Below, in pieces: positions 1 through 31,784 of a stretch of 59,271 nucleotides of DNA. The position numbers were made by a program, and so were the translations under genes. Source of the stretch: Candidatus Staskawiczbacteria bacterium. Lineage in GTDB: Bacteria; Patescibacteriota; Minisyncoccia; Minisyncoccales; Staskawiczbacteraceae. Below the pieces are notes generated by a model. That model was not told the DNA's origin and did not search any database. It saw only the letters and a list, made by a program, of their open reading frames with translations. Numbering within the stretch: position 1 is the stretch's first letter; the number at the start of each line of letters is the position of its first letter. The DNA lies in contig CAIMWV010000030.1 of assembly GCA_903845295.1 (NCBI GenBank), forward strand, positions 1 to 59,271, in the 5' to 3' direction.

Positions 1-391
1 CAAATCCTCCCATTGCTTTTTCCCTGCCCCTTAATGCCATATTTACTTTTACCTTATCTCCTTCTTCTAAAAACTTTTTTGCCTGGTTTGCCCTTGTTTC
101 CATGTCATGCGGAGAAATATTAAAAGTTAATCTTATTTCCTTTAATTCTCCTCCTTTGGGTTTTGCCATTTTCTTTTCTTTCTTCTGCTGCTGGTAAAGA
201 TATTTACCATAATTTGCAATTTTACAGACTGGGGGCTCTACTTTTTCTGTAACCTGAATCAAGTCCAAACCTTTTGATTTTGCCAAGTCAATTGCATCAA
301 ATATATTCATAATGCCAAGCTGTTCGCCTGTTTCTGAAATTACTCTCACTTCTTTTGCCCTTATGAAATTGTTGATTAATATTTTATCCAT
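1..391 (-). CDS. infC: Translation initiation factor IF-3, 5' part (runs off window start)
   Basis: Manual translation from ATG at 391: MDKILINNFIRAKEVRVISETGEQLGIM...LDLIQVTEKVEPPVCKIANYGKYLY...KEIRLTFNISPHD...GDKVKVNMALRGRE, typical IF-3 motifs. Not in the supplied ORF track. Confidence 0.95.
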   Translation of the reverse strand, partial: MDKILINNFIRAKEVRVISETGEQLGIMNIFDAIDLAKSKGLDLIQVTEKVEPPVCKIANYGKYLYQQQKKEKKMAKPKGGELKEIRLTFNISPHDMETRANQAKKFLEEGDKVKVNMALRGREKAMGGF

Positions 392-393
392 TG

Positions 394-739
394 TGGAAGT
401 GGCGGTTTTGGAACCGCGTCTGAAAAGTTTTTGAAAGCAATTCTACAAGTTTAGTCAGTTTTTATGTTCGAGCATTAAATAGAAAACTAACAAAATTTTT
501 AATGCCTTATCTCCTTAGTTTCGGCATCTCATCGGAGAAGTAAGCTGCCTATCCTAATAATATAACACCTTCATTCATTTATTAGGAGTCAATGGTGAAG
601 ATGCCGCATTAAGCGAAAGCTAACGCGGGTTGCTTATTAAATAAATTAGCAATTATGTTTTTTCCCGGAAGATTAAAGAGCCCCGAGAAAGCTCAACTTG
701 CCTTACTTAAAAGAACTAGTCATCGAAACATTCACTCCC
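394..739 (-). ncRNA. ssrA: tmRNA; tag peptide (A)ANLFNKQPALAFA* at 650..609; CCA not encoded
   Basis: 5' GGGAGUG pairs with 3' CACUUCC-A including the G3.U70 Ala determinant; T-arm-like GACGCGGUUCCAAAACCGC; resume context AUAAUU-GCU; tag ends in ALAFA; adjacent to smpB. Confidence 0.95.
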
Positions 740-742
740 GCG

Positions 743-1186
743 TTATTCTGACAGCTCGCGGTTGACTTCCCTTTCTACATCTCTCTTCTTGATTCTCTCT
801 TTTTTGTCGTATTTTTTCTTTCCTTTGGCTAATCCGAATTCGAGCTTTATCCTACCACCTTTATCATAAATTTTCAAGGGTATAAGGGAAAAACCCTTCT
901 GTGCAGACTTTCCCATAAGATAATCTATCTCTTTTTTATTCAAAAGAAGCTTTCTCTGCCTCTCTTGATTGTAATCAGCTCCGGCATTATTAGGCTGGTA
1001 TGGGGGCACCTTTACTCCCACTAAAAATGGTTCGTTCCTGTTAAATGTGACATAAGAGCCGGACAAATTTATGTGCCCGGTTTTTATCGATTTTACCTCT
1101 TGTCCAAACAAAACCAGCCCTGCCTCAAATTTTTCCAGGACATTGTAATCATAACTGGCTTTTTTGTTTTCCGAATAAATCTTCAT
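743..1186 (-). CDS. smpB: SsrA-binding protein SmpB
   Basis: NKKASYDY, EAGLVLFGQEVKS, RKLLLNKKEI, GKKKYDKKERIK motifs. Confidence 0.97.
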   Translation of the reverse strand: MKIYSENKKASYDYNVLEKFEAGLVLFGQEVKSIKTGHINLSGSYVTFNRNEPFLVGVKVPPYQPNNAGADYNQERQRKLLLNKKEIDYLMGKSAQKGFSLIPLKIYDKGGRIKLEFGLAKGKKKYDKKERIKKRDVEREVNRELSE

Positions 1187-1299
1187 AGCTTTATGGTATC
1201 ATATTAGCATAAATGTTTAATATTGACAATATAAAATATATGTGATAATAATATTATAGTTCTTCAGCCACAACTGCACTCTTTTTGGAGGTAGACCCG

Positions 1300-30897: not shown

Positions 30898-30934
30898 GGA
30901 TTTGCACCCTGTTAAGCCATTTAAAATTATAATA

Positions 30935-31669
30935 ATGAAAATTGTATTTTTAGGAGTAGGGGAAGCATTTGACGAAAACTTTCCCAACAATTCGCATTTG
31001 TTATCATCTGAAAAAACTAATTTGCTGGTTGACTGCGGATACACCGTGCCGCCGCAGTTGTGGAAATTTAATCCAGATCCTAATTTTTTGGATGCAATCT
31101 ATATCAGCCACCAGCACGCAGATCATTTTTTTGGTTTACCGGCTGTTCTCATGCGTATGTGGGAGGATGGCAGAAAAAGAGATTTAACAATTATCGGCCA
31201 GAAGGGATTGCAGGATTTTATGGATTACGCATACAAGGGTTTTTTGGAAAAATTTAAATACAAGATTAACTTAGTGGAATCAAAAGAAGGCGGAGCAATT
31301 AATTTCCAGGATTTAGAATTGTCATTTACAAAAACAGTGCATTCAGGAGAAAATTTGGCTGTAAAAATAACCGATGGGAAAAATATTTATGCTTATAGCG
31401 GGGACGGTTCGCCTTTGCCCGGAACTGATTTCTATAAAAATTTGGATCTGCTTGTTTTGGAAACATATTTATATGACCAGGAAAAAATCGGCCACTCTTC
31501 AATTATTTCTGCTATTAAATTTGCCGAAGGAAACAACGCAAAATGTTTGGCGTTAACGCATATGAACAGATATTTCAGAAAAAACGATTTGCCAAAAATC
31601 AAAAACAAGATAAAATCTCGTAAGGTTAAGATAATAATTCCCGAATCCCTGGACGAATATGAGATATAA
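30935..31669 (+). CDS. RNase Z-like metallo-beta-lactamase fold protein
   Basis: LGVGEA, LVDCG, ISHQHADH (HxHxDH), YSGDG, GHSS, LTHM. Confidence 0.8.
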   Translation: MKIVFLGVGEAFDENFPNNSHLLSSEKTNLLVDCGYTVPPQLWKFNPDPNFLDAIYISHQHADHFFGLPAVLMRMWEDGRKRDLTIIGQKGLQDFMDYAYKGFLEKFKYKINLVESKEGGAINFQDLELSFTKTVHSGENLAVKITDGKNIYAYSGDGSPLPGTDFYKNLDLLVLETYLYDQEKIGHSSIISAIKFAEGNNAKCLALTHMNRYFRKNDLPKIKNKIKSRKVKIIIPESLDEYEI

Positions 31670-31693: not shown

Positions 31694-31700
31694 ATTTATG

Positions 31701-31784
31701 TGCCCGAGGTGGGAGTTGAACCCACAATTCCGTAAGGAAATGCGATTTTGAGTCGCACGCGTATGCCAATTCCGCCACTCGGGC
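31701..31784 (-). tRNA. tRNA-Leu (CAA), CCA not encoded
   Basis: GCCCGAG acceptor stem, D-loop GGAATTGG, anticodon arm TGCGA-CTCAAAA-TCGCA, long variable arm, GGTTCAACTCC T-arm. Confidence 0.95.

Follow-up and report, generated by a model that had tools for sequence, protein, structure and literature searches.

How does a bacterium produce and read the messenger of initiation factor IF3 when the start codon of its gene, infC, begins inside the 3' tail of a stable RNA? This question is raised by contig CAIMWV010000030.1 of a Candidatus Staskawiczbacteria bacterium (assembly GCA_903845295.1), a stretch of 59,271 nucleotides (nt) that we call the window. The window is the whole of this contig (C30) from a metagenome-assembled genome (MAG) of 779 kb, and it starts inside infC. 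At this end, smpB, the transfer-messenger RNA (tmRNA) gene ssrA and infC follow each other on the minus strand. In our reading, to which we assign a probability of roughly 0.55, a single transcript is made, RNase P and a 3' endonuclease of the tRNA type would free the tmRNA from it, and CCA would then be added to the tmRNA, leaving an infC-rpmI-rplT messenger with a leader of 1-2 nt, whose leaderless-like translation would demand AUG.

The smpB coding sequence (1186..743, minus strand, from the list of open reading frames, ORFs; 147 amino acids, aa) matches the NCBIfam SmpB family with 176 bits, over the cut-off. It ends with TCA GAA TAA, the stop codon TAA lying at 745-743, and C742, G741 and C740 are the sole bases between this stop and the 5' G of the tmRNA at 739. 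The tmRNA (394..739, minus strand) extends from G739 to discriminator A394 according to a structural finder and to Rfam, whose model RF00023 for one-piece tmRNA matches 739..391 with 102.3 bits (gathering score 47, E 3.6e-40). Its acceptor stem, 5'-GGGAGUG paired with CACUUCC-3', is tRNA-Ala-like and has a G3:U70 pair next to discriminator A394. The tag reading frame with its stop, ANLFNKQPALAFA (609..650, minus strand, read from the sequence), opens with resume codon GCU at 650-648 and runs GCU AAU UUA UUU AAU AAG CAA CCC GCG UUA GCU UUC GCU UAA. It thus has an Ala resume codon and a hydrophobic C-terminus, ALAFA-stop, and the frame is intact despite a 3-nt insertion in a second copy of the locus, on contig C32 of the same MAG. 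Tail positions 74-76 (391..393, minus strand) read CAA in place of CCA, both in the sequence and in the Rfam match, and A391 is shared: it is the last tail base of the tmRNA and the A of the infC start ATG (391-389). From there the infC coding sequence (2..391, minus strand, ORF list) runs for its first 130 codons, MDKILINNFIRAKEVR..., until the contig end cuts the ORF; the IF3 family match (NCBIfam, 139 bits, over the cut-off) was scored on the full-length C32 copy. A preliminary description of this stretch, made from its letters alone, had placed the smpB stop at 745-743, 3 nt before G739, and had read A394, CA and an infC AUG at 391 with a CAA tail sharing A391. The minus-strand reading and the Rfam match agree with it in each of these points.

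A sigma-70-like promoter, TTGTCA-17-TAATAT with TG (1201..1229, minus strand), was found by consensus scan 5' of smpB and predicts a leader of about 8 nt ahead of the smpB ATG at 1186. For the stretch that separates the tmRNA from infC, the same scan of the minus strand revealed neither a promoter-like nor a terminator-like site. The tmRNA is flanked by ORFs of the same strand with neither promoter nor terminator intervening, the arrangement of a polycistronic transcript that is punctuated by tRNA or tmRNA. That infC shows neither a promoter nor a terminator nor a spacer for itself alone supports the preliminary description.

For comparison, we used 72 tmRNA loci of 70 relatives, which represent the genus itself, its family and another 32 families of the order. 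The tmRNA end given by the structural finder coincides with the Rfam end in 69 of the 72 loci, where the acceptor architecture is the same. The gene order smpB-ssrA-infC with short spacers is found in 71 of the 72, so that the adjacency on which the preliminary description had depended recurs in relatives, and the three genes lie on the same strand in every locus uncut by a contig end. From the discriminator to codon 1 of infC the median distance is 24 nt; it amounts to at most 35 nt in 54 and at most 80 nt in 68 of 71 loci, with three outliers of 340, 490 and 1141 nt. Across the relatives the ssrA-infC spacers are A/T-rich. Judged by gene order, the arrangement is far beyond chance.

Our RNA data are assembled metatranscriptome contigs, whose tips are clipped and whose depth is a mean per contig, and they carry no inference on the efficiency of cleavage. 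RNA of a congener, G016, is present at 100% identity in five runs (X48, X49, X25, X37, X50) of one lake-water study. A single 841-nt contig of X48 leads from 28 nt inside smpB across the tmRNA and a 30-nt spacer into infC, and the same bridge is found in X49, X25, X37 and X50. The transcript continues through infC-rpmI-rplT to about L044:3050. The contigs start within about 10-30 nt of the smpB start with zero depth upstream, and depth is zero for hundreds of bases on both sides of smpB-ssrA-infC-rpmI-rplT, which excludes DNA carry-over as the source of the RNA. In G016, smpB-ssrA-infC-rpmI-rplT is one transcription unit, and the co-transcription of smpB, ssrA and infC presumed for the window is thus observed in a congener, in continuous contigs reaching through rpmI-rplT. 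As loose ends, there are also contigs that span the junction in two or three further populations. Two further runs, X21 and X23, show very deep coverage of tmRNA bodies of relatives and nothing on their flanks.

In X25, RNA of G016 sets in within smpB at a distance of 154 nt from the tmRNA, which points to another start site or to a processing product that is stable. Within smpB of the window, the scan detected a promoter-like site, TTGAAA-17-TAGGAT with TG (849..877, minus strand), as a possible second start for the ssrA transcript. Its motif is present in G016 too; the X25 start falls upstream of the motif and does not confirm the site. Contig breaks at L044:2028 in four runs were considered as an RNA 3' end and rejected, as they are better explained by a 30-mer common to co-occurring strains in the conserved coding region NNFIRAKEV.

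Turning to translation, the genome's own 16S ribosomal RNA ends with GGAUCAUUUUUUU (as DNA GGATCATTTTTTT; C6:170-230) and lacks the CCUCC of the anti-Shine-Dalgarno (anti-SD) sequence. Along this line, CCTCC is absent from 29 of 30 16S 3' ends sampled across the order (L074-L103), and SD-like motifs upstream of ORFs occur at 8.9% against a background of 7.5%, i.e., without enrichment. Loss of the anti-SD has already been published for a subgroup of Parcubacteria (PMC9297842). The preliminary description had argued that the junction leaves no room for an SD; with a 16S devoid of anti-SD and a genome devoid of SD enrichment, this argument is moot. Missing space for an SD therefore says nothing special about infC. 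What is special about infC here is the folded tRNA-like domain that touches its start codon. Among 415 ORFs with a non-coding upstream region, a -10-like hexamer of the TATAAT family peaks at -12 from the ORF start, with 19 occurrences versus about 5 per position. This peak hints that a fraction of the genes may be leaderless from the start of transcription.

The start codons of infC reveal a relation to spacer length. We call an allele fused if its spacer measures 0-2 nt, which applies to the window, to G009 and G020 and to four metagenome contigs, together six distinct sequences; the pattern used to scan the metagenome contigs admitted any NTN as start codon. All fused alleles have ATG, in the three genomes of the genus as well as at 4 of 4 metagenome junctions. 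None of the 20 spaced alleles of the genus does: 15 have TTG, four ATC, and one has CAG at the aligned codon, with a TTG one codon upstream. Non-canonical infC starts outside the genus comprise seven ATT, three ATA and one ATC. The window with its ATG thus lacks the AUU, AUC or AUA type of start known from autoregulated infC. The six fused sequences are 74-83% identical to each other, and each is closer (80-88%) to some spaced TTG allele; parsimony on the locus tree asks for five changes. The independence of the fused alleles rests on these nearest-neighbor identities. Both junction types, A-C-ATG and A-CA-ATG, can result when everything from the CA or CAA tail up to the TG of a TTG start is deleted, and no deletion retaining TTG was seen in the genus. 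The restriction of ATG to fused alleles in the genus fits initiation of the leaderless type.

Codons 2-5 of infC are conserved as D/N-K-I/V/T-L, with synonymous changes (Leu5 as TTA, CTA, CTT or CTG); this constraint at the protein level places the start of translation at codon 1 and leaves no place for a start further downstream. A downstream non-AUG start was rejected on this ground.

Concerning the 3' end of the tmRNA, position 74 is C in all 72 tmRNA genes of the order, CCA being encoded in only 11. All 44 tRNA genes of the genome carry a C after the discriminator, with CCA encoded in 7 of the 44 and most of the others reading CA+N, and C74 is found in 17 of 17 credible tRNA genes within 400 kb of G005 (C1:1-400000). 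The universal C74 suggests an unusual rule of 3' processing: the cut may fall behind C74, or the nuclease may recognize this base. In the first case, A-C-AUG alleles would be left with a perfectly leaderless AUG and the window with 5'-A-AUG. The preliminary description had assumed an RNase Z cut after the discriminator; the universal C74 suggests that the cut may lie one base on, behind C74 and not A73. Its statement that CCA is not encoded is confirmed by the CAA tail, and a PolyA_pol/CCA-type enzyme is encoded in the genome together with RNase P RNA (110 bits), RNase J and RNase Y.

The gene that had been proposed to supply the 3' cut exists as an ORF with a metallo-beta-lactamase (MBL) fold (30902/30935..31669, plus strand), and its attribution to RNase Z is weak. 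In family searches its best family is indeed RNase Z (TIGR02651), and it has the HxHxDH metal motif of the MBL fold as HQHADH (YISHQHADHFFG). Its scores, 114 bits for the protein and 81.7 bits when the genome was searched, stay far below the cut-off of 293, and it covers positions 1-150 and 200-302 of the model only, without the flexible arm at 150-200, the exosite that clamps the tRNA elbow; the protein has 244-255 aa versus about 300. Matches with E <= 1e-5 occur in 10 of 26 genomes and are absent from several congeners of at least 97% completeness and from nearly all other families.

The design of the tmRNA-infC junction has counterparts among the tRNA genes of the same genome. The ATG of recG (728 aa, with a typical RecG N-terminus) lies 4 nt past the discriminator of a tRNA-Arg (C34:11917-14180), and an 88-aa GIY-YIG ORF starts 1 nt past the discriminator of a tRNA-Glu, again as A-C-ATG (C34:17040-17382, minus strand). 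Another GIY-YIG ORF begins 19 nt after a tRNA-Met (C10), and further ORFs begin 9-27 nt after tRNAs.

Taken in sequence, the proposed steps are as follows. After transcription of smpB, ssrA, infC and rpmI-rplT as one unit, the tmRNA would be removed from the polycistronic RNA as tRNAs are, RNase P cutting at G739 and a tRNA-type 3' endonuclease cutting after A394 or one base on, after C393. The tail would then be completed by the CCA-adding enzyme. For the window allele, the downstream product would be an infC-rpmI-rplT messenger beginning with 5'-(C)A-AUG, i.e., with a leader of 1-2 nt, and ribosomes without an anti-SD would read it by a leaderless-type route. This proposed route would account for the AUG of the window allele where spaced alleles have UUG or AUC. 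The first 60 nt of the predicted processed messenger are unstructured (minimum free energy, MFE, -2.8 kcal/mol, z 0.25). The near-leaderless infC message of the preliminary description is backed by the restriction of ATG to the fused alleles of the genus; the position and agent of the 3' cut, the cut product as the translated species and leaderless initiation are steps that we infer.

Several observations weigh against this reading. The exact junction of the window was not found again in DNA runs X1-X4, whose contigs are short, of low depth and from mixed strains, and the MAG is mixed at the ssrA-infC locus. No RNA of the window's own infC was seen in the runs examined, nor of the fused allele of G020. 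RNA bridging the uncut junction of G016 is abundant enough to assemble in four runs, so cleavage is incomplete and uncut RNA could be the translated species. Two distant relatives, G065 and G056, apparently have TTG 1-2 nt past the discriminator, so that AUG is no strict requirement in the order as a whole; the ATG of fused alleles could also be read as compensation for the close contact of the start codon with a folded RNA. For B. subtilis, C74 is an anti-determinant of canonical RNase Z cleavage. Finally, no convincing 3' endonuclease was found, the RNase Z-like gene having been sought in 26 genomes: being sub-threshold, devoid of the exosite and patchy in distribution, the ORF at 30902-31669 is a weak candidate for an activity that is needed throughout the order.

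Some of these points are shared by the main rival explanation, which we regard as rather unlikely. It holds that tmRNA maturation and IF3 synthesis use different molecules, IF3 being made from uncut precursor. The tmRNA 3' end would then arise by a distal cut followed by exonucleolytic trimming, which destroys the 5' end of infC, and the 30S subunit would load at an AUG beside the tRNA-like domain, a strong AUG offsetting the lost A-rich standby spacer. The association of ATG with fusion fits this explanation equally well, the G016 contigs bridging the junction in four runs have a depth similar to the downstream messenger, no conserved RNase Z was found, and RNase J and RNase Y are present. 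However, only 1-2 nt separate the 7-bp acceptor stem and T-arm from the AUG, so that the approximately 12-15 nt of single-stranded messenger upstream of the P site that known 30S footprints lead one to expect would be missing. One product would also be wasted per transcript, in an operon that is conserved with near-zero spacers in many lineages, and recG and the GIY-YIG gene abut ordinary tRNAs likewise.

An extension of our reading concerns feedback by IF3. The E. coli thrS-infC-rpmI-rplT operon is the model of AUU-dependent autoregulation of IF3. As there, infC-rpmI-rplT is transcribed here from upstream through a translation-related gene, and the infC starts of the relatives are weak or non-canonical (ATC, ATT, ATA, TTG); unlike there, the upstream gene is ssrA and not thrS, no SD exists, and the window has ATG, so that the AUU-type feature is absent. 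It could be that excess IF3 represses the near-leaderless AUG message in place of weak-start control, which would couple the supply of IF3 to tmRNA synthesis. We consider this add-on doubtful. According to PMC9723500, which cites La Teana 1993 and Tedin 1999, IF3 impedes AUU and AUA starts as well as initiation on leaderless messengers in E. coli. The antagonism toward leaderless messengers (Tedin et al. 1999, as cited there) would provide the sensitivity proposed for a 5'-CA-AUG message; it was seen in E. coli with mRNA of the lambda cI type, whereas the ribosomes considered here have no anti-SD. With TTG, ATC, ATT or ATA in spaced alleles and ATG in fused ones, an IF3-sensitive feature could exist in both layouts. 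On the other hand, UUG, the majority codon, is accepted by IF3 according to the same paper, and without an anti-SD many genes probably have short leaders or none, so that discrimination by IF3 against leaderless messengers cannot be specific for infC and may be relaxed.

Less probable still is an internal promoter in the 3' part of the tmRNA, e.g., at TAGAAT (445-440), which would give infC a tmRNA-derived leader of about 40 nt and make processing irrelevant to IF3. This -10-like hexamer does lie in the conserved UGUAGA segment, and promoters of these bacteria are uncharacterized. Yet the structure of the tmRNA constrains this motif throughout the bacteria, and the motif lacks both a -35 element and a proper extended -10; the scan finds nothing on the minus strand between 849 and the ATG; RNA depth in G016 drops rather than rises from the tmRNA to infC, and the contigs are continuous; and the leader would hold the T-arm hairpin immediately before the AUG.

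The integrity of the junction has to be seen in light of the second copy. At the end of contig C32 a second tmRNA is followed by infC-rpmI-rplT (C32:43040-44955, L002). It is 88% identical to the window locus (1-810) in DNA; its spacer measures 51 nt, and its infC opens with ATC instead of ATG. A single tmRNA is present in each of 73 further relatives with a match, and two differing copies in this MAG therefore make it most likely that the bin mixes two populations at the ssrA-infC locus. In the acceptor stem of the C32 copy, a 5' strand of the GGGGAUG type faces a 3' strand of the CACUUCC type, and the A:C mismatch that results hints at a chimeric contig end. Fused junctions of the form A-C-ATG or A-CA-ATG occur in G009 and G020, two MAGs that stem from separate studies, as well as in four metagenome contigs; this type of junction is real, even though that of the window was not reassembled. 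We regard it as very improbable that the junction arose as a chimera when a MAG of mixed strains was assembled, or that it is an infC-inactivating deletion in a minor variant: two tmRNAs, both locus copies lying at contig ends, the C32 mismatch and a junction uncovered by any DNA-run contig speak for it, but these independent occurrences speak against it, the tmRNA 3' end and the infC 5' end have no common long word for a de Bruijn mis-join, and the window infC ORF is intact, its protein 95% identical to the other copy.

In the C32 copy, spacer segment GCCCUUAUGGG pairs with infC codons 9-12 (UCAUAAGGGC), enclosing the AUC start in a loop (L002:1390-1503, minus strand). The hairpin has an MFE of -20.7 kcal/mol (z -3.0, reached in 0 of 200 shuffles); on this folding prediction it could be regulatory, or merely an inserted repeat.

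Processing of the tmRNA from one transcript, with an mRNA that begins at the infC start, would follow the principle known as tRNA punctuation from animal mitochondria (Ojala, Montoya and Attardi 1981; see PMC11996679, PMC5203842). In both cases a tRNA-like element stands directly between coding regions of a polycistronic transcript; in mitochondria its excision by RNase P and the 3' tRNase sets the ends of messengers whose leader is minimal or absent, and the ribosomes that translate them have no anti-SD. Here, unlike in mitochondria, the lineage is a free-standing bacterial one, the element is a tmRNA, ordinary tRNAs take this role only at a few other places, and most relatives keep an A-rich leader of 10-35 nt; cleavage and leaderless translation are putative here.

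Bacterial co-transcripts of tRNA and mRNA exist in the thrU-tyrU-glyT-thrT-tufB operon of E. coli. There, too, stable RNA genes and a translation-factor gene depend on one promoter and are separated by processing, but tufB has a normal leader with an SD and no tRNA 3' end touches its start codon. As to the 5' side, linkage of smpB and ssrA is known, as is their overlap in Candidatus Carsonella (Hudson, Lau and Williams 2014, PMC4131195). A survey of 2012 complete genomes in the same work lists ssrA, ratA/rnfH, RNase R and others as frequent neighbors of smpB and does not mention infC. In our relatives the smpB stop lies between 8 nt inside the tmRNA and a few nt upstream of it. It is placed 8 nt inside the tmRNA 5' end, as TGA within GGGGAUGA, in about 24 of 71 relatives, an arrangement previously reported only for Carsonella, and RNase P cleavage would therefore yield a non-stop smpB messenger in these cases. 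Carsonella and the window have smpB directly upstream of ssrA in common; in contrast to Carsonella, smpB of the window keeps its stop 3 nt before the tmRNA.

Our literature searches returned no report of an ssrA-infC linkage or of tRNA punctuation in bacteria. New in this study are the order-wide numbers, the RNA proof of co-transcription, the association of ATG with fusion in several lineages, the universal C74, and the parallels of tRNA-recG and tRNA-GIY-YIG. A tentative generalization, which we consider less probable than the excision itself, is that Staskawiczbacteria and allied Parcubacteria routinely use a bacterial form of tRNA punctuation. The anti-SD would have been lost, C74 would mark the 3' cut, and excision of tRNA or tmRNA would make the 5' ends of the infC, recG and GIY-YIG messengers. 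Loss of the spacer would then turn a messenger leaderless and AUG obligatory. In the case of infC, the exchange of a weak start and an A-rich leader for a leaderless AUG would keep self-repression by IF3 and tie the output of IF3, L35 and L20 to transcription of the tmRNA.

If our reading is true, bacteria would here provide their first example of an essential messenger whose 5' end is set, at its start codon, by the removal of a tRNA-like RNA, a principle so far known from mitochondria, and it would give a handle on the start of translation in a large group of uncultured bacteria without anti-SD. Recurrent independent losses of the spacer that always gave ATG represent a natural experiment on start-codon requirements. 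The layout also puts ribosome rescue (SmpB, tmRNA) and initiation and ribosome supply (IF3, L35, L20) under one promoter. For annotation, gene callers miss these tmRNAs because of a 6-nt T-loop and the lack of an encoded CCA, and they mis-start infC because of its TTG or ATC start and the lack of an SD. The window is an example: its T-loop has 6 nt, not the canonical 7, as in 53 of 69 relatives, and for this reason ARAGORN reported no tmRNA on it. The window tmRNA has neither a 7-nt T-loop nor an encoded CCA, features that are typical of the family and not required by it.

Some minor observations remain to be added. A tRNA-Leu gene (31700-31784, minus strand) converges on the RNase Z-like ORF, whose end is 31 nt away. 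Adapter-flanked RNA ends at C74 or C75 occur in X23 and X28; they stem from unplaced relatives. One RNA contig of X23 connects the 5' end of the tmRNA (739) to 393 through two additional letters, which may reflect a circular or ligated form or an assembly loop. Finally, a repeat starting with CAC-TTCGACTCGCT..CGCTCAG(T/G)G directly follows several tRNA and tmRNA genes. It was found after tRNA-Met (C10:1044-1118) and tRNA-Pro (C15:41038-41109) and in the tmRNA-infC spacers of G016, G033, G038, G032 and the C32 copy, where it accounts for the longer ssrA-infC spacers; from these positions, it seems to be a small element that targets the 3' ends of tRNA and tmRNA genes.

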